Assembly: GCA_958009085.1 (NCBI GenBank)
Contig: OY253670.1
Location: 372,001-436,000, forward strand
Source of the DNA: Protoeuglena noctilucae
Taxonomy: Eukaryota
Direction: 5' to 3'
Length of the DNA: 64,000 nt
Shown here: positions 3,034 to 33,048 of the stretch, piece after piece
Layout of the letters: each line of letters begins with the position of its first letter
Numbering within the stretch: the first letter of the stretch is position 1
Notes under the pieces: model-generated
Seen by the model: the letters and a program-made list of their open reading frames with translations, nothing else
Told to the model about the DNA's origin: nothing
Databases searched by the model: none
Position numbers and translations under genes: made by a program

Positions 3034-3393
3034 AGCGCTCCCGGGCTTCTGGAACCGGAGCCACTGGCGCGGAGTACGAGGCAGAGGATGCGGCTCTCGT
3101 GTGGGGCGCAGCTTCGCATTAATTTTGATAGGCGAATGGTTCTGCGCCCGCAGGACGAAGGCGGGGTAAGTTTTTTTGCGCCAGAACTCAGTGTCACAAG
3201 CACGCCAGTGATCTCCTCCTGGAGGCTCCCAGCGCATTGTCATCTCGACTGCGTTGCCAGTCCGCTACTGAAGCCACTGCCGCTATTGCCGGGAGCAGGG
3301 GGCTGTCACAGAGTGTAACTCAGCAGCGGAGCGCCAGCTAGGGCCCAAACCTGGCAGCCTCTGTTGGACGCCGCGCGCGGGCACCAGGACACG

Positions 3394-16985: not shown

Positions 16986-19900
16986 TCACTTGGCCGTCGC
17001 CGCCCCCTTGGCCGCCCCCTTCTTTGTCTTGGCAGATGTCCTAAGCACTTGAAGGGCGTCAGGCCCTTCCTGTGGCCGCCCCAACGCCCCCCGACCCACC
17101 ACCACCATCGCGCGACCCCCCTTGCCACCCTTGCCGCGCCTCGCCAAAGCGTCACGCAACGCGCGGGCACGCGACTCCGCCTGCATTGCAGAGAGACGGC
17201 GGCTTCGAGAGTCACTCGTTATAAATGTGCAAACGGAGCTGCCATATCACCATCACTGACAACCCCTCTCCTCCCTGACCCTTACACACGCTACCACCAC
17301 CTCTCTCTCCTCCCATCCCTCACCAATGTCTCCACCCTCCCCTTCCCTTTCCCCTTCTTCCCCTCACGCCCCGCCCCACGCCCCGCCCCCGCCCCTCCCT
17401 GCCCAGCCGCCCCACTGTTACCCCCACCGCTGCTCCCCGCCTCCCCATCCGCGTTTCGCTTTGCTGGAGGTTCCTCGTTACCACCATTACCCCCACCCTC
17501 GCCCCGGCTCCCCACCAACTCCTTGGCGAGAGCCACGCCTCCCCTTGATGCCGTCAGCACAGCGTCGCTCCCCTCCCCGCCCTCTGCACCTGAAAAGAAG
17601 CGGGACAGGGTAGGGTTTCAGTGAGACCATTGCATGTGAGCCGAGGCACAAAGGGTCACAGCCACGGCCACAGCCACAACACATCATCCCTTACGCATGG
17701 CACCCCTCACATCCCCCACCTCCCCAACACCCCAAATCACCCCAACACCCCCTCGCCTGCTGCCCCCCCCACGTGTGCCAGTACGGTCGCCTGCGCCCCC
17801 GTGAAGAATCGATGGCTGAATCGGGGCTGCATGGGCTGGGCCAGTCGTGTAGATAGCTGGGCACGCAATGACCGTGCCTGAGCCAACGCCTTTGCGTCTG
17901 CCTTGGTGCGGGGGGAGGGGCCTGGGGTGCAAGAGTAAGAGAGAAGAGAAGTTGCAGTTGGGTTGCGGTTGCATCGGGTTGCGAGTTGCATGTGATGGGG
18001 GGTGACAAAGGAACAGTGGCACTTACAATCCACATTTTGACGCTCGCCTTTCCCATCAGCACCCACTCTCACTCACCCCCACTCCTCCCCTCACCTTCCC
18101 CGTCCCCCTCCCCCTCATCGCCCTCCACCTCAAGCCCCACCTTCCCCATCCCCACCCCCACTCCTCCCCTCACCTTCCCCGTCCCCCTCCCCCTCATCGC
18201 CCTCCACCTCAAGCCCCACCTTCCCCATCCCCACCCCCACTCCTCCCCTCACCTTCCCCGTCCCCCTCCCCCTCATCGCCCTCCACCTCCAGCCCCGCCT
18301 CCTCGGCATTGCGCCGCATCCAGTCACCCTCAGCCTTCTGCTTGCGCATGCCCCGCTCAATGTCATCCACACGCATCGCCAACGCCAAACGAGCCTTGGC
18401 CTCTGGCAGCACTGCGACAGAGGGAGGGCGATGAGTGCATCATGGGGTGATGTGTTATGGGTGGCAGAAGGGGATAAGTGTGTGGGGTGACGTGCCGCTT
18501 TGTCACCACAAGTGAGGGGTGCGTGGCACAAGGGAAGCGAGCGCAAGCGACAGAGGGGCACAACGTTGCGATGCTATGAGTGCCCACAAAACTGTCCCTT
18601 GTGAGCTGAGCCAATTCAAATCACTGTACAGTCACAGTCACTGACCTGTGGTGGACAGTCGCAGTCACTGAGTCACTAACCTGTGGGGTCTACGGGGAAC
18701 TCGGGTGGCAGGTCGTCGACGAGGTGAGCGAGGAGGGCGAGGTACCTCGGCTTGTCGGGGGGGGTGACCAGGGCCACGGAGAGACCCTCCTGCCCCGCGC
18801 GACCGGTGCGGCCGGCACGGTGCACGTAGATGTCTGCGTGGGGGGGTACATGGAGATAGATGACTGCGTTGGGTAAGTGGGGTGAGAGATGCCGATGTGT
18901 GTGGATGGGTGGCTGGCAGCTGCATGCGCGGGGAGTGCGGATGGCATGTGAAGGTAAGAAGTAGCATTGCTAATGCCGTACACTCACCCAGGCTGGCGGG
19001 CATCTGGTAGTGCACCACGCACCACACACAGACACACCACCCACACACACACACCCACCCACCACGCATGACACACTCACTCACCCAGGCTGGCGGGCAT
19101 CTGGTAGTGCACGACGCACCGCACCCCCCGGACGTCGATGCCCCTCGCCGCCACGTCCGTGGCCACGAGGACCGCGGAGGGATTCGAACCGAACCGCTCC
19201 AGGCTCCGCAGTCGCTGCCGCTGCTGCTGCTGGGCGTGGATGGCGTGGGCGGGGAGGCCCAGGATGGAGAGGAGCGCCACCACGCGCCGCACGGCCGACA
19301 CCGCGTTACAAAAGACCATCGTCCGGCCCGGGTGCAAAGCGAGGAGGTAGTAGAGCAGCGCGTCGCGGTCGCGATCGAGGCACTCGATGTGCGCCTGGTG
19401 GACCCCCGCGGCCAGGCGACGGGAGGACGTCACGTCGACGATGTCTGGCACGGCACCGCCACGCCAGATGCGCTCCACCAGGGCCTCGATCTGCAAACGC
19501 GATAACAGAAACGTGTTAAATATGTATATACAACTCAGAATATGCGTGAGCTTTCCTGCACGGCACTCGGAGCGGGCGGGTGGGAGGTCAGCAGCGAGGG
19601 CGTGTCAACTTGATCCCACCGCAGCACGCCCTCTGCGCCAGAGCGAGCCTCACGTTGGGCGCCCTGCCGCCGTATCCGCCCTTGCCGCGCTCGACTTTCT
19701 TCTTCCATGACTGCGGGAGCGTGAGCGTAGCCGAGAAGAGCATTCGCGTGACTTGCAGCCTTGCCCCCCGCCTCTTCCGGGCCAAACGCTCCTGCTCCCG
19801 CAGAACCGCGTCGCCGCGGTCCTCGTTCGGATCGACGGAGAGGAACTCCGCGTGGTCGGCGCCCCTGCAAAGCGATGATAAGGAGGGTGAGGGTCGGGGA

Positions 19901-21628
19901 GTGGAGGCAGGAGCACGCATGGCCACAGTCCCAGCTATGTGTGTCCATCCCGACAAGACGCCACAGGACGAACAGTCACTTGAGAGCACGCAGACAGATG
20001 CAGGCAGGCGTGCTCAAGAGAGAGCTCGAAGCCAGTCATAATGCCCCCACATCGGAGCTCGGCTGGCGTCGCCTTGCCTTGTGTGCATGTGCATATGACC
20101 CAGGCGCTCACCAGAGGGGCGACAATCGATCGAGGATGTGCATGAGTTCCTGGAAATGTCCCTTCTCCGCCATTCGGTCCGCCTCGTCAATCACCAGGAA
20201 TCGAAGTCCCGATGTGTCGGTGAGATGCACGTGGTCCCCGCTGCTCATCAGCTCCCACAGCCGCCCGGGAGTCGCCACCACCACCTCAGGGCGGTATCCT
20301 ACCAATCGCTCCTGTTTCTGATGCGAGATGCCCCCCACGATTGCCACAGTGCGGATGCCACAGGGGCGGCCCACCGCCGCGAAGTGCTCCGCCACCTGAA
20401 GGGCCAGCTCCCGCGTCGGGGCGAGGACCAGCGCGCGGAGGCGGCGGTCGGCCGCAGCGGCGTCCCTGCAAGCGCGCGAAGCGGGGGGCGTGAGGCAGGG
20501 GCGAGGCGGGGAGCGCAGGTGGGAGCGGCAGGCAGCGAGCGTCGGCCGATGAACCCCCAAACGCGCGTGCGCACGCGAACCGCACCCGTCCGCGTCGCTC
20601 TCTGTGGCCCCGACTGCTGCGCGCTCCTCCCGCTCCTGCAGTAACCGCTGTAGGATGGGCAGCGCAAAGGCAAGCGTCTTGCCGCTGCCCGTCTCGGCCG
20701 CGCCCACGACGTCCCGGCCGTCTCGCGTCACGCGCGGAATCACCGCCTTCTGGATCGGAGTCGGCCTCTCGAATCCAACTTTCGACAGCGCCGCCTCGAT
20801 GCGCGGATGGAGCAGGAGGGGCCGCCACGCAGACACGTCCACCCCCGGGGACGCATCCTCCTCCGCTCCCTCCTCCTGAGACGCCGCGAAGAGACAAGCG
20901 AGATATATAGTGCGGAACTAATGATGGCGCCGAACAGAATTACGCTTCGCCGCGGCGCGCGCACCTCCGCCTCCACGGCCTTCGCTTCGGCCCTTTCCTT
21001 CGCCTTGGCCCTCTTCCCGCGCCGCCCCTCGACCGCTCCCGACCCGCTCTTTCCTTCCTCGCTCTCCGCCCGCTCCCTGCCTCGCTTCGCGCCGCCCTCC
21101 CTGGCGCGCCCCTCCCCAGCAGCACCCGCACCGTCGGCTTCCCCCGCCCCCGCCTCGCGCAGCAGACGGTTTGCCTTCTCCTGGAGCTTCCGCGCGCGCT
21201 CCAACAGTTTCTCTCGTCGAACGTCGTCCTCGGCGCCGGATTCGTCCCTCGCGCCGCCCTGCGCCTTCGCTGGAGTCTTCCCGGCCTTCTTTCGCGAGCC
21301 GCCGTCACCGCCCGGGGCGCTTGTCCGCGCGGCAAAGAACTTATCCGGATTCAGGCGCTCAATAACCATCAGCCCGGGCTCCGAGAGGCCCCCGAAGAAG
21401 TCGTCGCCGGGCGCCACGGGCTCAAAGGCGTCATCGACCGCTGTCCTGCGGCCAAAGCGTGCCGGGGAGCGCATTCCGCGCCTCCCGAGACGCACGAGGG
21501 GAGTTTACGTGGCAAGTAAAAACGCACGGTCCTCACCAGTCGATGTCGGCGAGGTCGGCTGCCGCTTCCAGCGGGGGAGCAGCCTCGCCGCCTCGTGCAT
21601 CCTTGCGTTTCTTGACCGCTTTTCCCAT
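16986..21628 (-). CDS. DEAD-box RNA helicase DDX24/MAK5/RH13-like
   Basis: PTPIQ, AETGSGKTLAF, PTRELA, VIDEADRM..GHF.EL, FSATLT, ATDVAARGIDV, DIYVHRAGRTGRAG. Confidence 0.92.
18074..18299 (-). repeat. Three copies of a 79-bp unit containing exon end plus 5' splice site
   Basis: Unit starts at 18074, 18153 and 18232. Each carries ...GGGGACGGGGAAG|gtgagg on the minus strand. Confidence 0.92.
18981..19120 (-). repeat. 43-bp direct repeat of exon end plus donor
   Basis: 18981-19023 versus 19078-19120, one mismatch, encoding CVVHYQMPASL|gtgagtg. Confidence 0.92.
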
Positions 21629-21950
21629 CTCAAACTGGGAGCGCGACTTCACTGACGGCAGCCGCCATTACGGAGCGCCAAGAGGCAGGGACGCCAGCTG
21701 AGCTGCAGCGGGTCTGGCACGAACACGCCAGCCCATGAAACGGGCTCCGCCGCGCAAAAGGCTTGCTGGGGTGAAGCTCCTGGTCAATGCCTGCTAGCTA
21801 ATTGTATTCCTCACCACCACTGTTGCATAAGACGCACCACGTGCCCCGTGGAAGCTTGCAACGTGGCCGCATGCCTCTGTCGTCACTTAGGAAAGGCTAG
21901 GGGGCAGTTCAAGTGCTCGCACCGCGGGCCCATAGCCGGGCTACGCGCGC

Positions 21951-22594
21951 ATGTCCGGGGTCGTCCAGCAGGCGCTCGAGCACTACGCGCAGAAGCGCGA
22001 GACGCTGCAGGTGCCCCGCTGAAACCGCCTCGCAGAGCTCCGTCGTCATGCGACACGCTTGCGTCTTTGTTATTTCATCTGGGCCCGCCAAATGGGATTT
22101 TGTGGCTTCGAGCGCGTCGCGCCGCGGCATGAAGTACCGCCCCGCCCCTCGTGGCGTCCCGCGCCGCGAGCTTTCCGGCCGCCGAAAGCGCGAGCATGGG
22201 AACGTTACGTGCATCGTGCAGGAGGACGTGCGGGTTTTGGACCGGAAGATCTACGATTTGGAAGGAGCGTACCTTGGGTCCGAGAGCAGCCAATGCGGGA
22301 CGGTGTTCAAGGGCTTTGAGGGCTTCATGTCCAGCAAGGACGCAAATCGTAGGGTAAGCGGAGGCGTTGGGGCGGAAGAGCTTCGCCAGTCTCGCATAGG
22401 CTGGCCAGTGTCTTGGGTTGTGTCGCACGACCGACCATTTCAATGTCTGGTGCTTCTCGCAGCGCGGCAGGGTCTTCAAGGCCGACGAGCGACTCTTCTC
22501 TCTGTCATCCTTGACGAGTCCCGCGCACCAGGAGGTCGAGGCGGCGATAGAGGCCGAGCAGGGCGTGGGTGGGGGCAAGAAGGGCAAGCGATGA
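21951..22594 (+). CDS. EAF6: NuA4 subunit EAF6/MEAF6 (3 exons)
   Basis: LDRKIYDLEGAYL..CGTVFKGFEGF..FKADERLFSLSSLTSP. Confidence 0.9.
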
Positions 22595-22613
22595 CTTGAA
22601 CCGATGAACGGAG

Positions 22614-24626
22614 TCACAGCCTGGCCACCATCCACATGCCGTCGACGCAGTAGGGCCGCACGTCGAGGTCCAGCTCGCGTCCCTCCTCTGCCAACTGCTC
22701 CAACACCTCCGCCAGAGTCTGGCTGGACGACGGGCCGAAGCGGTTGTCCCACACGCGCACGTACTGCGTGGGGCGGGCAAGACACAGGCCATGTCATTTC
22801 GATGCCATGACCATCGCTCCTTTACCCTTTCTTAATGCCGCTCCTCGCCCTGTGTCTAAGCCACTGTGGTTCCCATGCTTTCCGGCGTATCCCATGCATC
22901 TGTGTCAGCTGGCAATGGCCTTGCCTGTAGGGACGGGCACTGCGCCAGCGTCTCCGAAACCGCCTCCAATCCCAGGTCGTTGATGCAGCACGTCTGCAGG
23001 TCGAGGCGCCAGATGTTGCACTGGTCGCCCATGTCGATCATCGCCTGGCACAACTCCACCACCGCCGCGTCCCCCAGCCTGCGTGGCACGGGCAGCATGC
23101 GTGCGGTCAGAGCTTGGCAGGAAGCCCCGCACCGTTGCGTCGACCTGGCGATGTCAATCCAGCGTTGCTCGTATGAGTTAGCGTTGCTCGCTTCATTCCG
23201 TCCTCATCCTGTGCTCCCACCTGTTCCCTGCCAAGTCCAGCTCCTCCAGGCACGGGAGCTTCTTGACCATCTCCGCCAACGTCGGCCCGCTGACGTCCGA
23301 GAGCTGGTTCGACCGCAGCGACTGCAAGCGAGAGGAGGAAGAGGGGACGTGTTCGTTCCCAAACCCGGGAGGATCGCAATCAGCAACATTCCACAGTGCC
23401 ACCCACGCGATACTGCAGTGGGCTCCACTGCGCAGGCAGGGTCCTTATGATATATGACATCAGCAACTCACCAGCGACACGATGCCCGAACCCGTGGGCA
23501 GGGCCGTTCTCATGAGGTACTGCAGGTCGTGGTCCTGTATTTGGCAGACCTTGAGGCTCAGCTCCTTCAGCGCGGAGCAGGCGCTGATCACGTTGCCCAG
23601 GTGCCGCGTGGAGTGCTCCGAGGGGCCCCGGAACGTCGGGGCGTCGATCTTGAGCGACTCGAGTGTCGCCTTGCACGCGCCCTCGTGGGTAGCAGCAAAG
23701 AGGCCCATGAGGCCCTTCATGCCCACGCCGGTGTAGCCGATGTCGAGCATGGTCTGCGAAGGGCCGGGTCGGGCGGGCGCGATGTGCAGCCGGCGACGAT
23801 TGGCTGGTGAGAGCGCCGGCTGTGTGTGTGCGACGTTGCGCGTGCAAGTTGCTGGGCGATGCCTGCGGGCCGCTGCGCTTACCAGCGTGTCGTGGGTGCG
23901 GAGGAAGTCGGAAAGGCGCAGGATGCCGTCGTCGGTGATGCCCGGGTTGCAATTGAGGACGAGCTGCTGCAGTCCCGATCCCCGGGACTCTGCCAGGGCA
24001 TCAACGAGCGCGACCAGACCGTCGTCCGTGACGCGGTTGTTCGACAGGATGATGCTCGCGATGTTGGGATTGCGGCGCACCAGGGCGGCCAGCGCCCGCA
24101 CGCCCTCGTCATCGATCCTGGAATGCGGGAGGGACCGACATGAGCCCGGCAGGGTTGCGTGTAGAGCGAGCGTTCTTAGCCCAGCAGCATGCCGCGACGA
24201 AAGCAGGACCGCATCGCGTACCTGTTGTAAGAGAAGTCGAGCGTGTGGACGTTGGCGTCGTCCTGGAGGGCCTCGGCGATGGCGGTGACGTCCGTGGAGT
24301 CGAGGCGCTCGTTGAAGAGGACCTTGGAATTGCCCGTGAGCTTGATGGCTGCCACCACCGAGTTCACTTGCACCGCGTTCTGCACGCAATTGGCGCTTCC
24401 AGTCATACCGCGTGCCGTGCGCGTGAGGGGACGTACACCAGCAGCAGCATCGCCGTCCCGCCTCCCGACAGGCCAGACTGGAACTCTCTGGCCACGCAGA
24501 GTTTCGGTCTGACGTTCGATAGCATGTCGTAACGTCTCTCGCCTTCAGGCCGTTGACGAGGATGTGGAGCGGCTCGACCTGCAGCCTCTCGCATGCCGCC
24601 GTGTAATTGGCGAGGAGGTGGTCCAT
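22614..24626 (-). CDS. LRRC34: Leucine-rich repeat protein, LRRC34-like
   Basis: LTGN..LFNERLDSTD, LDFSYNRIDDEG, RI-type LRRs, VWDNRF, C-terminal DVRPYCVDG. Confidence 0.75.
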
Positions 24627-25056
24627 GGCACCGGACCGGGGGCCCGGAAGCCCCCACGAAGTCTAACGGCGATACTCTGTCACAGACGTGGCAGCCGGCC
24701 AAGCAGCGAGGACGCCAAGGGGTGGAACAAGTGTGTATGCTTCAGTGTGTGCTTGTCCGATGAAATCAGGGGCTGTGCGTTGTGAGCAAGTTTGGATTGT
24801 GAACAAGTGCAGAGACTGAGGTGGAGTAGGGAGATTTTGAGCGCAACAGAGGTGATTGGCTTAAGCGCAAGTTGCAGCGCCAGCGATGGTTGCAGCGCTC
24901 GATCTCAAGCACGCCCGAGAGCGCGAGCTTATGCGTTGTTTTCCATGCATCTCTGACACGTGCCGAGTGCTTGCATCCGTTGTTCGCACGCTGGCAACGG
25001 CAAGCCCACGCGAAGTCTTGCCTCTTTGCTCCACGAATGGGCTCTTTCCAGCGACC

Positions 25057-26087
25057 ATGATTGCCACGGATGGCATCGTTTTCCGACCCAGCCGCCTGAC
25101 CCGGTCTCGGGGTGCAGCGGGTCCCACGCAGGGGCGCACGTTGCTCGGAGCACCACGCTGGCATCAGGCGAACTCCGTTTCGCCCACTGCGTTCGTCCTC
25201 CGCGCTCTCCGCGATGATCGAAGCGTGCGCGACCCGTATGTCGTGCTCGGCGTGCCACGAGGGGTGCGTGGAGCTGCGGCGGGGCTGCCCAGGGAAACGT
25301 ACCCGGCCCGCACGCGCGCGGGACGACGACACGTCGATGACCCCGCCCTCGCAGGCATCTCGAGCGGAAATTCGCATGGCGTATCGCGCCATGATGAAGC
25401 AACTGCACCCGGACGTGAAAAGCGCCGACACAACTGCCGCTGCGGTGGAGGTGCCTCTGCCCGCCCTTTGCGATGCGTGGCGATGCGTGGCAATGTCATC
25501 GTGGTCGCTGTGTGACAAGCGTTGCCCTCCTTCCGTCTCCGGCAGGTCATTGAGGCGTACCGGTCGTTGATGGGCGAGACGCGGGCACGGTTAAGCGAGG
25601 AGGAGGAGAGCGCCCCAACCGGTCCGCAGGGCGACATCTTCGACTTCCCTGAGGGCCCAGCGGACGCCATTTTCGTCGATCCCTTCGCCTGCCTCAACGT
25701 AGACCCGTCGCTGTGGAGGGAGCTGCAGCAGGTCGTGCGCTCTGCGGAAGAGTCGGGGCGTGACCCTTTCGACGCCCTCACCGCCAAGGGCGTGTCGGGC
25801 CAGGGGGCAGTGACGTGGCTGACGCAGTCGCAGCTGTCGGATTTGGAAGAAGAGTTGGAGCTCATGGAGAAGTCCTTTTCCTACGAGACGTCACGATACT
25901 ACGTGCAGGACTGCCTGCTGCGAGCCAGGTGAGGGAGGGACTCAATGCATGACGTGGTTACTCGGCGCTAGTCACTGTTACTCAGAAGAGACGTCGCCGC
26001 ACTTCCGCACCAGCCACCTCAGCAGCTGCGCCTCTCCCCCATGCCCGCAGCGGTGCCTACAACCGTGGTACACGAGGCTTTGGATGA
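25057..26087 (+). CDS. Plastid-type J-domain protein with a degenerate ferredoxin-like C-terminal region
   Basis: Transit-peptide-like start, DPYVVLGV, AYRAMMKQLHPDV (HPD motif), then FDFPEGPADAIFVDPFAC and VTWLTQSQLSDLE. Confidence 0.8.
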
Positions 26088-26095
26088 GGCGGTTC

Positions 26096-26100
26096 TGTAA
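26096..26100 (+). promoter_or_regulatory. Candidate chlorophyte-type polyadenylation signal TGTAA
   Basis: TGTAA 8 nt after the J-protein stop. UGUAA is the established chlorophyte signal, but a 5-mer can occur by chance. Confidence 0.4.
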
Positions 26101-26370
26101 GGCAATGCCAGTTTCTAGCATGCCACGCCTCAGTGCCAGGTGGCTGTTTGCTTGCTATGGGTCCCTGACATGTTCTGACCCACATCACATCTATCCACTC
26201 ACATTTTTGGGTGCCCATTTATCCCCTTTTTCTTGCCAGCCGCTGAGCATCCCACTTCCCAGGGCCCCTCCCAGTGTTGCTGTTGCCGTCATCGCCTTTG
26301 GCACGTTTCAACCAAGCCGTCGCACGCACGGCAGCAGCCACGCTCGCCCGCCCGCCGAGCCCCTCGGCTC

Positions 26371-29300
26371 TCATCGCCGGTCCGTCTTGCCCTGCTTGCG
26401 CTTCCCCGAGAAGAGGTGCTTGGGCATCTTGTTGAACAGGCGACGGTCAGCCTCGCCAGCGCGCGCCCGGTGCTTGTCCATCGACAGGTGTCGCTGCGGG
26501 GAGCAAAGCACGAAATGCAATTCGAATATACTCACAAGTGACTCCGGCGCAGCAGACGCGCCGCAGCGGGTGCGCGGGAGCGAGTGATGGGTGCCCTCAG
26601 GCGGACGATGATGGTCGCCCTTTAGTTTTGTCAACACGATCCATCGGCCGGTGCTACCCAGCCATTCAGGTCTCAAAGATTGCATTCCCTCGCAGGGCAC
26701 CTTCCCCCGCGCGAACCACGCCAGAGTTGCGGTTCGCAACCACGCTCTTTTTGCGCTGTACACACATGACCACTCCCGCCCCCACTCGCCTGCGCCACGT
26801 CCCCCATCTTGAGCGATTTGTTCCTCTGCGATGCGTCCTTGAGGCCGGACCCGGGCGCCACGGGCGCCATCGACACGCTCCGTCCCCGCGACAGGCTGCG
26901 GCTGGGCTTGGAGTGCGTGCGCACCCGCTTGCGCCCCTCCCCGCCCATCTCCGCGTCCCCGTCGTCGTCGACCTCCGCGCCGCCCCTGGAAGAGGCGCGG
27001 GACTCGCTCAGGCCGCGCTTGAGGGGGCGCCCGCGCGACTGGGACCTGCAAGCACAACACGGGAGGAGGGTGCAGTGGGGCGCATCGGGTGCGGTCACTC
27101 ATGTAGCATAAAGCAAACGATCCAGGCGGTGAAACATATGCTTAGCAGGGAAAAGCAGGGTGGTATGAGCGAGTCTTAGTGAGCCCTGCAAGTGAGGACC
27201 CAGCCCTCCTCTCACCGTATCCGCGCCTCTGCCGCAGTCGTGTCCACCCCCCGCCCCCGCAGCTCCTCCCTGGCCCTCTCTAGCCTCTCGTCTCCCGCGT
27301 ACGAGGCCACCGTGCGTGGCACCACCGGGTTGTTGGACGCACGGACCTTCTTCTCCCGACTCAAGGCCTGGGGACGCAACACAAAGGGTGGGGCGTAAGG
27401 CATCGGCACGTGTGGGGGGCTGCGAGTGGCGTGCGTTGTGTGTGGGACGGGCACCAAGCGTGCCAGGCGTGCTTGTGCTAGTAGTTGTCACAAAGCACCA
27501 ACATGGCATCGTCCCCCCCGTCGCTTCCTCACCTTGAGCTTCTTCTTCTTGTCGTTGATGCGCATAAGCAGAGCACGGTCCTCTGGGGTCAGGTCCTCCT
27601 CTGCAGGGATGGCTTCCGCCATCGACTGCTCCTGAAAGCACGATAAGACACGACGGACATGAGGTTGAGGCTGACTTTGAGGTTGAAGCGGGGTCAACGA
27701 GGGAGGCGCCGAGATAGATGCACTCCTAACTAGCTCGGTTGCAGTCGGATGCAGCCGCTTGCTGCCATGTCACACGCTGTGGTGTGGCATGCCGTTAGTC
27801 AGCACCCACCCCCGCTACCTCCACATCTCACCCGCACCCACCTGCCAGTCTCACCTGCCACTCCCTCAGCATCTCGTCCCCCTCCCTTCTACCACCACCC
27901 TAACAACTCTCACCTGCCACTCCCTCAGCATCTCACCCCACCACCACCCGCTCATCTCACCTGCCACTCCCTGAGCATCTCGTCCTCCTCCCTTCCACCA
28001 CCCACCCGCAAAGCCTCACCTGCCACTCCCTCCTTACCACCTGCCACTACCCCACCAACTCTCACCTGCCACTCCCTGAGCATCTCGTCCTCCTCCCTCT
28101 CCAGCGCCTCCAGCTTCGCGTCGATGTCCGGGTCCACGAAATCCGCCACGTTGTGCCCGTCGAGCGTCTCTGGCATGACGTCGTAACGCCAGTCCGCCGG
28201 CAGGTCGTACATCTTCCGCAAGTCCGCGTTGTAGACACCCGCGCCGCCGTTCTCCTCTTGCAAATCGCGCTGTGAGTTATGGAAGCGGAAAAGACTGCAT
28301 TTGCACGTAGCATACACACGGCCAACACGAAACAAGTTCGACAAGCCCGCACCCTCCATCCAGTGTCCATGTTCCATCTCCCACCCCAAACTCTTTTCAC
28401 AAGCCCCTCTCTTCCATTCCCCTAACACACCCGCTTTCACCACCCATAGCACCACCGCGCGCCCCTCACCTCCGTCTTTCTTCGCACCACCTCGCGCCCC
28501 GCCCCTCACCTCCGTCTTTCTTCGCAGCCCCTCCTCCCTGGCCCTCCGCGCCGCCTCCACCCCCGCCGGGATCACGGGCGGCCTCGCCGCACCCCCCGTC
28601 GCCTTGGGCACCGCCACGTGCACCCGATTGGCCACGTCAGCGACTTTCTTCGATCGCAACTTGAGCTGCACCCGCGCCGCCAGCAGCCTCTCGCACGCCA
28701 GGTTCTTGACTGCCTGGACTGACGCGTCGTCTGTCAGAGTCGACATGGCCGCGAAGCACGTCTCGCCCTGGCCGGCGTGGGGCGGGATGCCGCCGTTGGA
28801 GATCTTGGCGGCCTGGGGGGGATGGGGGCGGGGTGGCGGGGGTGTCAGGATGGCGGGGGGGGGTGGGCGGGGGTGTCAGGATGGGGAGTGAGTGGCGGGG
28901 GTGTCAGGATGGGGGGTGAGACAGTGGCAGGGGAGGAACCAAGTGGCACAGACCCTCGACATCCCAGCCACCACCCACCACCCCACCCACCCCGCCCTGC
29001 CCTTACCTCCCCCACCATCTCTTGCGCAGTCCGCCAAACACCCCAAACCACACACACCCGCTCTACCCACTCCACCCTCCCCTCACCTCCACCACATCTC
29101 CTGCACACACCCTCAACAACCCCACCAACACACACCAACTCCCCACCCCACCCTCCCCTCACCTCCTACACCATCTCCTGCACAGGCCCTCAACATCCAC
29201 ACCACCCCACCCTCTCACCTCCTCCACCATCTCCTGCACGAGCCCCCTGGCCTCCTCCCCCAGTGCCTCGTAGGGCGTCACGTCGACCTTGTTCACCACC

Positions 29301-31044
29301 ACCAGCACGGGCTTGTTGGCGAAAAGGGGCTTGATGCTGTGGAAAAGCGCGGCCTGCTGTGCGACCGAGTACCCGCACTGCTCGGAGACGTCGACCAGGT
29401 ACAGCACAGCGGCGCGCAAATGGGCCATGGCTGTGATGGACTGCATCTCGATCGTGTTGCGCTCCTCCAGGGGACGGTCCAGGATACCGGGGGAGTCCAC
29501 CACCTGCCACCGAAGGTACTTGTAGTCTGCAAGCAAGGCGAGGGGCGGGAGGGTGTCAATGGAGGGTGTCGGTGCAGTCAAGCACCTGCCAGCGGAGGTG
29601 CTTAGTGACTGTCGAATAAGTGATGGGTGGGGAATGCTACGTGGGAGGCTTGTGTGTCAGACTAAATGCGTGCGTCTGAGTGAGCCACGGTGTGCGTGCC
29701 GCTCCAAGTTGAAGGGAAGGTGCAAGTGGCATCTCATGCTCTGCTCTAATGTGATACCTCACCGAGGTGCCCGACGTAGAGCGACTTGGTGGTGAAGGCG
29801 TACGGCTGAACCTCCACGTCCGCCCGCGTGACCTTGTTAATGAACGAGGACTTGCCCACGTTGGGGTAGCCGCAGACGAGGAGCGTGCGGGTGTTGGGGT
29901 CGATCGATGGAAGGCGCGACATGTGCTGGCGGACCTGCGGGGAGGGTGGGCGACGGCAGGGGGTCTCGGCCCTGACCGCCCCACCCGTCGCGTGCGACGC
30001 ACGCCAGCTATCGCGCAATCCCAAAGGCGCCACTGCGCTGATCGGAGCAGTCGCAAGCCCTCCGGATGCAGCCCGTCGCGTCCCCGCGCCCAACGCCCCC
30101 TCCTCGCTGCCCTGGGTTCAGCTCACCTGCTCCAGGTAGGCCAGCGAGGGCCCCTGGCGCTTGATGATCGTGCACATGCGGCCCAGCGCGGCGCGCTTGA
30201 GCGTCTTCGCCCGATATTGAGAGTCCGCGTACTTGAGCATGCGAACGTAGTCGTTGGCGAGCTTGTCGATCAGCGTGCGCGCCATGTTGACCTGGCCCAG
30301 CGCGAGCTTGTAGTGGTCCTTGTCGTACAGCACGTTCATGAGGTCCGCGTAGAAGGGATGAATCTCGTCCACCTGCGGAGGCCGGGCGGCGGGCCTCGGA
30401 ACAACCCGCCACGTCCCAGCAGCCGGCGGGGCAGAAAGCCACCGCTCGGAGCTCGCGCGGCCCCGGTGCGTGGGGAGAGGAAGGCACAAAGAATCATCTA
30501 CAACATCGGCTGGGTTGCGGGGGAGGAGAACGTGCGTGCGCGGCGGCGGCGCGCGTAGACCTAGCAGCAGACTGAAGGACCGGCGCGAGGGCCTCCGCCG
30601 ACGCACGCGCTGCCGCGGCGAGCGGCAATGGCGATGGCGGAAAGCAGAAATGCTTGCACATTCGCAGCGCACCGAGAGGCCGGGTCGGATGGGAAAGGAC
30701 ACCGCGCGCGCGCAGCCGGCAGAGTGTGAGCGTGCTGCGCATCGCTCCGGACCGGCCAGGAGAAGCTCCCCTGGCGCATATAAACCACACGGTCCCACAC
30801 GCAGCGTGGGGCGTCCACCGCACGCCCTCACCTTGGGGAAGTCCTCCAGAATCTGCCCGAGGCGCTCGTTCCACGTCTGCTGGGTGTACTTGACCTTGCG
30901 CATGTAGAAGGACCGAATGCGCGTGATGTGCCACCCCGCATGATTCACGGTGGGCGTCTGCCGCTGCGTCTTCGACAGGACAATGTCGATGAAGTCCTTG
31001 GCCGTCGGCACGACCTTCATGGCCTTGAAGTTGTACGTCGGCAT
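26371..31044 (-). CDS. NOG1: Nucleolar GTP-binding protein 1
   Basis: [74 protein letters not shown]. Confidence 0.97.
27839..28097 (-). repeat. About 5-6 degenerate copies of NOG1 exon end plus donor
   Basis: ctcacctgccactccct(g/c)agcatctc core at 27850, 27908, 27956 and 28061, with partial copies at 28015 and 28038. Confidence 0.88.
28461..28526 (-). repeat. 26-bp exact repeat of NOG1 exon end plus donor (period 40)
   Basis: gcccctcacctccgtctttcttcgca at 28461 and 28501. Confidence 0.92.
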
Positions 31045-31583
31045 GACGGACCCGGGCGACGGAACGCAGCGACAGCCACTCTCGACGCTGGGCTGGCGGC
31101 CCCGCCCCGCCGCGTCGCCCCTCGCTCTGCTCCCTAGTTGGCCGGGTGCAACCTCTCCGCTAGTTTAGACTAAATGCAAGTCGCGCAGTCGGATGCCTTG
31201 GATGTGGAGCGACGAGTTCGTGGAAACATCGCGACGATGACCAGAGGATCGGATTTGGCGCACTAGCTAGGGTGCTGCCCTGCGCTGGAATGATGGTTCG
31301 TCGCGTCGGACGCGCTTCGGATATGGCCCGGCCTCTGCAGCGTCTCCTCAAAAAGAGCAACGTCGAATCTGAGTGCCATTGGCTCCGAGAGACTTTCCGG
31401 TTGTCGCATCAAGGCAACGTGCAGTTCCCACGCTCTCCCCGCTCTCTCCGCGCGCGTAGCCATCCTTTTTCCTCCATTCATCTCCCGTCGACATCTCTTA
31501 TTAATAAAGCCCGATTAGGGACTGGATCCTTGTCCAGAGACCTCCGGCCGCGGCTGCCTGCCCCCGTCTCCAGGGGCGGTGTC

Positions 31584-33048
31584 ATGTCAGTCGCCGAGCG
31601 GGTGGCGGACATCGCCGCCTCGCTGTCGTGGCCCTGGAGCAGCATGCACGAGGGCCACAAGATGTCGGAGGAGGACGCGCGCCTCGCCGTCGCCAACTAC
31701 GCGACCTTCAAGCCCGTCGTCCGGATGCGCTTGCTCATGGCCCTCTGGCATCTCCCTGCGAGGGACAAGGCCGCGATCGCCGCGGATCTCGAAAGGCGAG
31801 GCTCACCTCTAACGATGTCGCGTGGGACAGTGCCACGCGCACCTGTAAAGGGTGCCATGCCGCACCACGACCCGACCCAGGCCAAGCCATCAAAAGCCAG
31901 CCGTCTCACACCCCCGCAGGCTCTCTCAGATGGCGCGAGCGGACGATGACCAGTGGGTCCGCGTGGTCGCCGCGGCAGTGGGGGAGTTCCGCGGTCCCTT
32001 GGACCTGCCCAGCCTCGTGGCACTACCAGCGGTCAGGGACACGGTCGACGGCATCGCCCGTGTGCTGGCAGACAACGAGGCAGCGGGAGGTCCACTGATC
32101 GTCCCCGAGGCCGCCTATCTCTCGCCGTACGCCATGCAGTGCCTGGGCCTGCCAGAGCCTCACCCCGAGTCACGGTCACCCCATCTGAAGGCGCGGCCGT
32201 CGCACGTGCCACCCTTCCAGCCCCTGCCGCCCCGGACGCAAGGTGCGGTCGGACCGAGTCCCTGCGATACTTTCGTGAAATACCGCTTTTTGTTTTCACC
32301 CGTCCCTTTGCAGCACAGGGGCATAAACTACAACTGAGTGGGGCATGCGCCTGCTATTTGGGGATAAGCCGCATCTGCAGGTGTGGGACTGGATATGGCG
32401 GGAGGGGTTCTGGGGCGTGCGGGTCCTGCGTCGGGGGAGCGTGCGAACGGGGCCGTGGCAGGCGGGCTGCACGAGGCGGCGAGCGGGGCGGGCGGCGTCG
32501 GGATGGAGAGCGACGGGCTCGAGGTGAGCGGCGGCGCTGCTGTACCTGACAGACGCCGGCATGGGATAGTGCAAACCTCCCAAGCATCGCAGTCATCACC
32601 AGCCACGCCGTTGCCCAGCAGCTTTTGCTGCTTCGCCTGTGTCCAGCATTCCCATCAGCTTCGTTTGTCACCATGATTAAATCTGCTTTGCTGCATGCGC
32701 AGTGGGAGGAGGCGAGCCTCGGGGATGCAGGGCCTGGGCTACTGATGGGGTCGCGTGGCATGGGGGATGGCGGCAGTCTGGGAGTGCCCAGCCGACCAGG
32801 GACGGCGATGGGGTGCGGAACGCAGGCGGCTGCATCGCGCTTGCCTCTTTGTATGGCCCGTCCTGTCCATGGGCCATGCCATGCCGATGTGTGGCTCGGC
32901 GGCTGCTGGCGAAGTGGACACCATCCTTTCATTGCCAGGGTGAAAAGGCGAACATTCTAACACATCTCTGTCTTGCAGGGTGGATGTGGCTTCGCAGGGG
33001 AGTGCGGGAGCAGCGGCGTCCATGCCGGCCAAGCGGCCAAGGCGATGA
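31584..33048 (+). CDS. NELF-A (negative elongation factor A) N-terminal-domain homologue (5 exons)
   Basis: PWSS, VRMRLLMALWHLP, ARADDDQWVRVVA, LDL, PEAAYLSP, HLKARP follow the order of the NELF-A N-terminal motifs. It ends in NLS-like PAKRPRR*. Confidence 0.7.

Follow-up and report, generated by a model that had tools for sequence, protein, structure and literature searches.

Exon-end copies within introns of a green alga differ mainly at synonymous sites and may be gene-conversion scars between diverged alleles

Introduction

Tandem repeats that span a splice donor have been described in human F7, in which intron 7 carries a 37-bp variable-number tandem repeat extending across the exon 7 donor; the downstream donors are reported to be intact, and the most upstream donor alone is used (PMC1557585). 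In the alga Protoeuglena noctilucae, introns of NOG1 and of many other genes hold copies of the adjoining exon end together with its splice site, which we call echoes. As in the published F7 description, the first unit spans the exon–intron junction, downstream donors are intact and the most upstream one is used; that description concerns one locus with identical donor sites, whereas echoes occur genome-wide, have an acceptor mirror form and are mostly single-copy, and their copies, unlike those of F7, differ as two coding alleles would (PMC1557585). Near-identical head-to-tail units of the F7 type are the exception here: intron parts are more than 90% alike in 2 of 55 echoes (both perfect tandem units), and units of the NOG1 arrays are 74–83% identical. 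Donor-spanning repeats are therefore already known, and the synonymous bias of the copies is the new point. Synonymous-biased exon-end copies, a 50-nt limit on the copied exon and a mirror form were not found in the literature searched, mainly open-access main texts.

Two further systems bear on how such copies could arise. Introns are reported to be gained by tandem genomic duplication of AGGT and also through double-strand break repair, and echoes resemble these in being short local duplications with splice signals for which break repair is a candidate source (PMC3443670). Unlike that process, an echo creates no intron: the second copy is a plausible acceptor in 0 of 56 cases and lies within an existing intron. 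Gao and Lynch reportedly described internal gene duplications. In mammalian cells, gene conversion that is unable to anneal its second end is closed by end joining, and microhomology end joining there leaves copied sequence at the junction, much as we propose for echoes (PMC5104497). The system, as its report presents it, uses mammalian reporters and kilobase tracts copied from the sister, whereas tracts here measure ~90 nt and seem to come from a diverged template, a natural genome carries the scars in fixed form and the mechanism is one that we infer (PMC5104497).

In the basidiomycete Schizophyllum commune, recombination between genomes 14% apart is limited to conserved stretches, mainly exons, which resembles the exon-confined recombination between diverged genomes proposed below (PMC4209137). 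Its abstract does not mention duplicated exon ends, and high diversity in the present alga is a supposition (PMC4209137).

Results

The window is a 64,000-nt stretch of DNA (G000:C3:372001-436000) from a genome of 26.3 Mb in 27 contigs. RNA contigs of two runs (X9 and X10) recovered all nine introns of NOG1; the translated model is identical to database protein P0001 and matches the NOG1 domain in Pfam. The features of the gene, in window coordinates, are as follows.

26371..31044, minus strand: NOG1, 10 exons, 691 amino acids, exon model from RNA joints
29563..29603, minus strand: acceptor-side echo of the exon 4 start in intron 3, decayed, 76% alike over 41 nt
28813..29218, minus strand: intron 4, spliced at its first donor, 29218 (RNA joint 28811/29218)
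29002..29189, minus strand: intron 4 echoes, three copies of the exon 4 end and donor (donors 29162, 29086, 29006)
28820..28916, minus strand: array at the 3' end of intron 4, 28 nt x 3.4, with a branch-point-like CTGAC and a C-rich tract
28270..28509, minus strand: intron 5, spliced at its first donor, 28509 (RNA joint 28269/28510)
28460..28486, minus strand: intron 5 echo of the exon 5 end and donor, exact over 27 nt, 40 nt downstream of the true site
27632..28065, minus strand: intron 6, spliced at its first donor, 28065 (RNA joint 27630/28065, X9 and X10)
27836..28049, minus strand: intron 6 echo array (donors 28040, 28019, 27960, 27913, 27854, 27841)

The three donor arrays lie where an initial annotation, made from the sequence alone, had placed them, on the minus strand in introns 4, 5 and 6 of 9. 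Intron 6 holds four echoes with an intact GTGAG donor (28019, 27960, 27913 and 27854), each copying 12–33 exon nucleotides, and two short ones (28040 and 27841). Its array forms a higher-order unit of 105–106 nt, and two distal copies carry a synonymous CTC-to-CTG change. The exact copy reported for intron 5 is real (28460-28486 = 28500-28526), although its length is 27 nt rather than the 26 nt first given. In intron 4, the echo array (79 nt x 3.3, 74% matches) decays with distance. The initial annotation had seen an exact-to-degenerate gradient across the three introns; outward decay holds for intron 4 only, intron 6 being a higher-order unit, and the nearest copy outscores the farthest in only 6 of 10 arrays. 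The acceptor echo of intron 3, where the downstream acceptor is the one used (RNA joint 29526/29763), and the CTGAC array of intron 4, which from consensus may serve as a branch point, are absent from the initial annotation.

Splicing ignores the donor copies in the RNA joints listed: in all three introns, the X9 and X10 contigs use the most upstream donor alone, bearing in mind that such contigs drop rare forms. Counting intron 3, the site beside the whole exon is used at three donors and one acceptor.

The echoes in NOG1 are real. Contigs from an independent DNA run, X6, cover 19662-27883, 27964-28098, 28069-28823 and 29163-31200 with 0 other letters, which contradicts an assembly slip and bears out the earlier claim of repeated real events. 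The third of these spans the intron 5 echo and the fourth the intron 3 acceptor echo; together the contigs cover most intron 6 echoes and part of the first intron 4 echo, with the two distal intron 4 copies falling outside the contigs listed. They break within the longest repeat (39 nt) with a 30-letter overlap, as a real repeat would cause. This check covered NOG1 and part of the helicase gene described below. No copy-number variant was seen across four runs, whose contigs break at repeats.

Several observations concern the gene and its surroundings. Intron 9 of NOG1 has a GC donor, confirmed by RNA, and GC replaces GT in ~20% of predicted donors (246/1225, all predicted introns). RNA contigs at window positions 25925-26493 run a plus-strand J-domain-like gene and NOG1 end to end; the 3' ends of the two genes seem to overlap, and a two-gene contig does not show a single transcript. 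Judged by eye, a relative (L061:967-1470) retains the gene that lies head to head with NOG1 (from window position 31584).

The nearest named relative of NOG1 is a chlorophyte (52% over exon 5); on this ground, and since marine runs contain the window's sequence, we class the source as a green alga. In the one relative whose introns were compared (529 of 691 residues identical), introns lie at residues 71, 330, 577 and 646; the first and last positions are common to both genes, and introns 2–7, including the three donor-echo introns (4, 5 and 6), are absent from it.

Echoes form a genome-wide class

Beyond NOG1, we sampled 1.044 Mb in 24 blocks, ~4% of the genome, using a gene model that trained itself with NOG1 as its seed. 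Splice sites beyond the window are predictions; the model reproduced 12 of the 14 spliceosomal joints listed (9 from the seed gene) and missed two. At an echo score of at least 18, donor echoes occur in 70 and acceptor echoes in 18 of the 1954 predicted introns, or ~1 intron in 25, a rate that is not a clean genome average since three echo-rich blocks were extended deliberately. Fifteen of the 24 blocks are echo-free. Echoes exceed chance: in the first 664 kb, the 16-mer starting at -12 recurs within its own intron in 55 of 1213 introns, as against 0 matched introns (introns of other genes, matched for length and G content). The first 16 intron bases recur in their own intron in only 14 of 1225.

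Echoes are concentrated in low-GC blocks, mostly lying over ~1 kb downstream of the start codon. The preference for long genes and their later introns, noted initially from two genes, extends to the sample, with an echo rate of 2/554 within 500 nt of the start codon against 44/477 beyond 2 kb. In a logistic model, position, gene length and the length of the gene's other introns each contribute; GC3 does not. As a weak proxy for the high transcription that the initial annotation had suggested as a link, GC3 is also the same in long genes with and without echoes (0.862 versus 0.859). A link to ribosome biogenesis, which the initial annotation had drawn from NOG1 and a helicase gene, dissolved on wider sampling. 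In a Pfam scan of 106 of the 117 exons listed for 42 echo genes, the matches were of mixed function, namely SPT16, coatomer beta, peptidase M16, CCT, bromodomain, MBOAT, Psb27, a sugar transporter and others. The SPT16 gene (L008-L010, G000:C3 ~348900-356900) is the densest case, with echoes in 8 of 21 predicted introns. The helicase gene lies in the window and contains two features of interest.

18981..19112, minus strand: DEAD-box helicase (initially annotated DDX24), exact 35-nt donor echo, 97 nt downstream, with a dissimilar spacer
18074..18300, minus strand: DEAD-box helicase, near-perfect 79-nt tandem unit across a predicted donor

The 79-nt unit is one of only two perfect cases in 55.

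On contig C3, a lower-GC stretch of ~200 kb has echoes in 43 of its 375 introns, against 0 of 180 outside, with bounds set post hoc. This block (G000:C3:332001-532000) has longer, AT-richer introns and contains all echoes of the C3 blocks; similar blocks exist on C8, C12 and C14. It is possibly a centromere region. In Pelagomonas calceolata, low-GC, intron-richer regions are reported as putative centromeres and read as regions of low recombination, and the C3 block resembles them as a gene-rich low-GC block (200–260 kb) with longer genes (bioRxiv 10.1101/2021.10.25.465678). Unlike in that report, the GC dip here is mild (0.61–0.66 versus 0.65–0.68) and introns are longer, not shorter.

Many introns of the low-GC blocks also contain recurrent simple repeats, for example GAGGGT and GGGGTGGCAGT units, some of them donor-like. 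A ~310-nt element with internal repeats is present in three copies (G000:C3 ~277900, 302200 and 309900; L001 and L004). In echo genes, strand skew flips at exons, intron starts being G-rich and intron ends C-rich. Strand skew, intron length and AT content climb with distance from the start codon, as does the echo rate. Four-fold sites of echo genes are G-rich before donors and C-rich after acceptors, and other genes differ in this.

Copies share constrained sites and differ at free ones

A donor echo repeats the last 15–50 exon bases and the donor at a median of 88 nt downstream of the true site. The order is exon end, donor, 30–120 nt of intron start, second exon end, second donor and then a full-length intron, of which at least 77 nt, holding the sole acceptor, follow the echo. 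Acceptor echoes mirror this arrangement; in most of them the AG is intact and the acceptor scores well. Spacer and post-echo sequence are homologous (P=1e-6 versus other echoes), yet only ~64% alike; intron parts are 52–82% alike even where the exon part is exact, and those of unrelated echoes align at ~40–55%. The left edge is sharp. The copied exon piece has a median of 24 nt and exceeds 50 nt in 1 of 53 donor echoes (22.3 expected) and 0 of 14 acceptor echoes (5.8 expected), where the expectation assumes even breakpoints and ungapped extension may shorten old copies.

Differences between copies are mainly synonymous. The pN/pS ratio is 0.20 for the 70 donor echoes and 0.23 for the 18 acceptor echoes, whereas a neutral copy would give 0.5; it is 0.20 outside the main C3 block (n=32) and 0.17 in a fresh replicate set of 8 echoes (P=0.08). 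Across 82 echoes, with perfect units left out, four-fold sites differ at 60 of 316 and zero-fold sites at 53 of 1192, a ratio of 4.3 (bootstrap 3.0–6.2) against the 2 predicted for a neutral copy. Nearly the whole excess consists of synonymous C/G swaps (31 versus 5.6 expected), while transitions and other transversions are close to expectation; a C/G excess is what divergence should produce when each of two sequences is kept at high GC3. Donor-echo swaps have no direction (C>G 13, G>C 11), and the commoner codon is in the exon in 43 cases and in the echo in 35.

Echo donors are conserved at +1 to +5 (91–98%) and +7 (80%), with +6 at only 59%, which, as a sequence profile, is that predicted of a working donor. 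Both copies bear the marks of coding and splice-site constraint: constrained sites differ by ~4% and adjacent free sites by 20–40%. The most economical interpretation is that the two copies diverged while functional and were joined later. The initial annotation took divergence as a measure of age alone, overlooking that the differences are mainly synonymous. Because they are, much of the divergence probably predates the copying, and the bias suggests that echoes were already diverged when they were born.

Echoes in NOG1 genes of other organisms were sought among 65 loci from one metagenome scan, none of them this species (near records may be omitted); in most of these, the stretch compared has few introns. 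In L112 (57% GC, with introns rich in CA/GT), two acceptor echoes lie 90 and 82 nt upstream (L112:2244-2368 and 3186-3303), and all 6 of their 6 differences are synonymous, which we counted for scars between two alleles. L117 has two decayed copies of acceptor and exon start (L117:4230-4540), which precede the true acceptor by 240 and 151 nt; their differences are mostly non-synonymous, which counts against that reading. L117-L124 are eight contigs of one organism and are identical to one another over the NOG1 echo, offering no polymorphism. No echo was seen in the four NOG1 introns of L061.

Discussion

On balance, though with limited confidence, we take the echoes to have arisen when gene conversion between diverged alleles was aborted and the break was closed by end joining. 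Each would be a recombination scar joining two diverged, once-functional versions of one exon–intron junction. A strand would invade in the exon, because this is the only part alike between the two alleles, and repair synthesis would start there and extend ~90 nt, crossing the splice site and entering intron sequence of the other allele that cannot be aligned. At the second broken end, the new strand would then find under ~50 homeologous exon bases (a threshold that we estimate from the breakpoints), too few for annealing, and the ends would be joined directly. Such a scar would be tolerated because the splice site beside the intact exon is used; selection probably explains why donor scars exceed acceptor scars 4 to 1 (70 versus 18). 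Scars would persist where recombination is low, in low-GC blocks and far from promoters, since removal would be slow there, and same-template duplications may later multiply some of them, as in NOG1 intron 6.

The second allele could come from a very diverse sexual population, or equally from a hybrid origin with later loss of heterozygosity, a history documented in another green alga in the report available (PMC12636532). No second allele was seen at the echoes in four runs from at most three samples, a thin sampling. The exon tested has one match only in the genome, and the protein cluster of P0001 has one member. Counting against the conversion reading, allelic divergence of ~20% at silent sites is far above that of most species.

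Echoes might instead arise by tandem duplication from the same template, followed by much faster change in the exon end in use and the adjoining intron than in the echo. Splice sites in use would then lie in a mutable zone with strand skew, caused for instance by R-loops, and selection would pass silent changes only. We think this unlikely, while recognizing what speaks for it. It requires no diverged allele and accommodates the two perfect tandem units; the four-fold skew of echo genes sets them apart from other genes, and skew, intron length, AT content and the echo rate all grow away from the start codon. Short-spacer echoes are also slightly richer in non-synonymous change (22/341 versus 21/607), as a mutable zone near donors predicts. 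However, spacers are strongly diverged throughout, beyond +100, and echoes at +30 to +55, which share the zone, differ by only ~6% at non-synonymous sites, a much stronger conservation than that of spacer bases equally far from the donor. Young copies of intermediate identity are nearly absent (2 of 55 above 85%), and the 50-nt limit is left unexplained.

Plain neutral duplication of the F7 type, in which those short random duplications that span a donor survive and the G/T-rich intron parts are scrambled by slippage, seems to us improbable as the general source. The anatomy and first-donor use match F7 intron 7 as reported (PMC1557585). These introns often carry slippage arrays (38 intron-internal repeats), and the L117 echoes decay in such a manner. 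Neutral copying predicts no C/G excess and evenly spread breakpoints, neither of which is seen, and the four-fold to zero-fold ratio is about twice its prediction of 2. It does account for the perfect units and the higher-order repeat of NOG1 intron 6, and to these plain duplication certainly contributes.

We very much doubt that the echoes serve as coding sequence of a minor isoform entered at a cryptic acceptor, or that selection on splicing maintains them. Echo donors score like true ones (53 of 56 exceed the 5th percentile for real donors) and echo conservation is of the coding type, but not one of 56 echoes has an acceptor that exceeds the corresponding percentile for real acceptors, in-frame read-through to the echo donor is open in 5 of 56, and the RNA joints listed use first donors only, in contigs that drop rare forms; a cryptic acceptor or alternative exon end was accordingly rejected. 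Two haplotypes merged by the assembly at exon ends, which would likewise yield synonymous-biased copies, deserve hardly any credence, as X6 contains the NOG1 echoes with 0 differences (among them the intron 3 echo and the copy at 27854 with its synonymous variant), runs X5 and X6 contain 97% and 94% of the window's words, and L112 stems from a different assembly.

Three other candidates were rejected. No introner families were evident in the sample of ~4% of the genome: 21 of 1954 introns have a match of at least 50 nt to another intron, and those among the matches listed comprise a few near-identical pairs and 70–86% matches, many on one intron. Against adenine-specific templated change of the retroelement type, only 18 of 121 differences have A on the echo side. 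Gene conversion between an echo and its own exon would, by reasoning, give a pN/pS ratio of 0.5 to 1, not 0.2.

If the conversion reading holds, the haploid assembly keeps, in hundreds of introns, fossil gene conversion between alleles ~20% apart at silent sites, each echo being a lost allele's exon end, and the geometry gives ~90 nt of synthesis and ~50 nt of least homology; the signature may be common in intron-rich green algae. We would wager on this whole picture and against it alike. If true, a single genome would suffice to read past sex or hybridization and past allelic diversity in unculturable or poorly studied algae, and intron growth would have one natural source identified. Whatever the mechanism, the echoes warn that gene predictors may choose the wrong donor, and the 88 natural duplicated, high-scoring splice sites provide a test of how a green alga chooses the exon-adjacent site.
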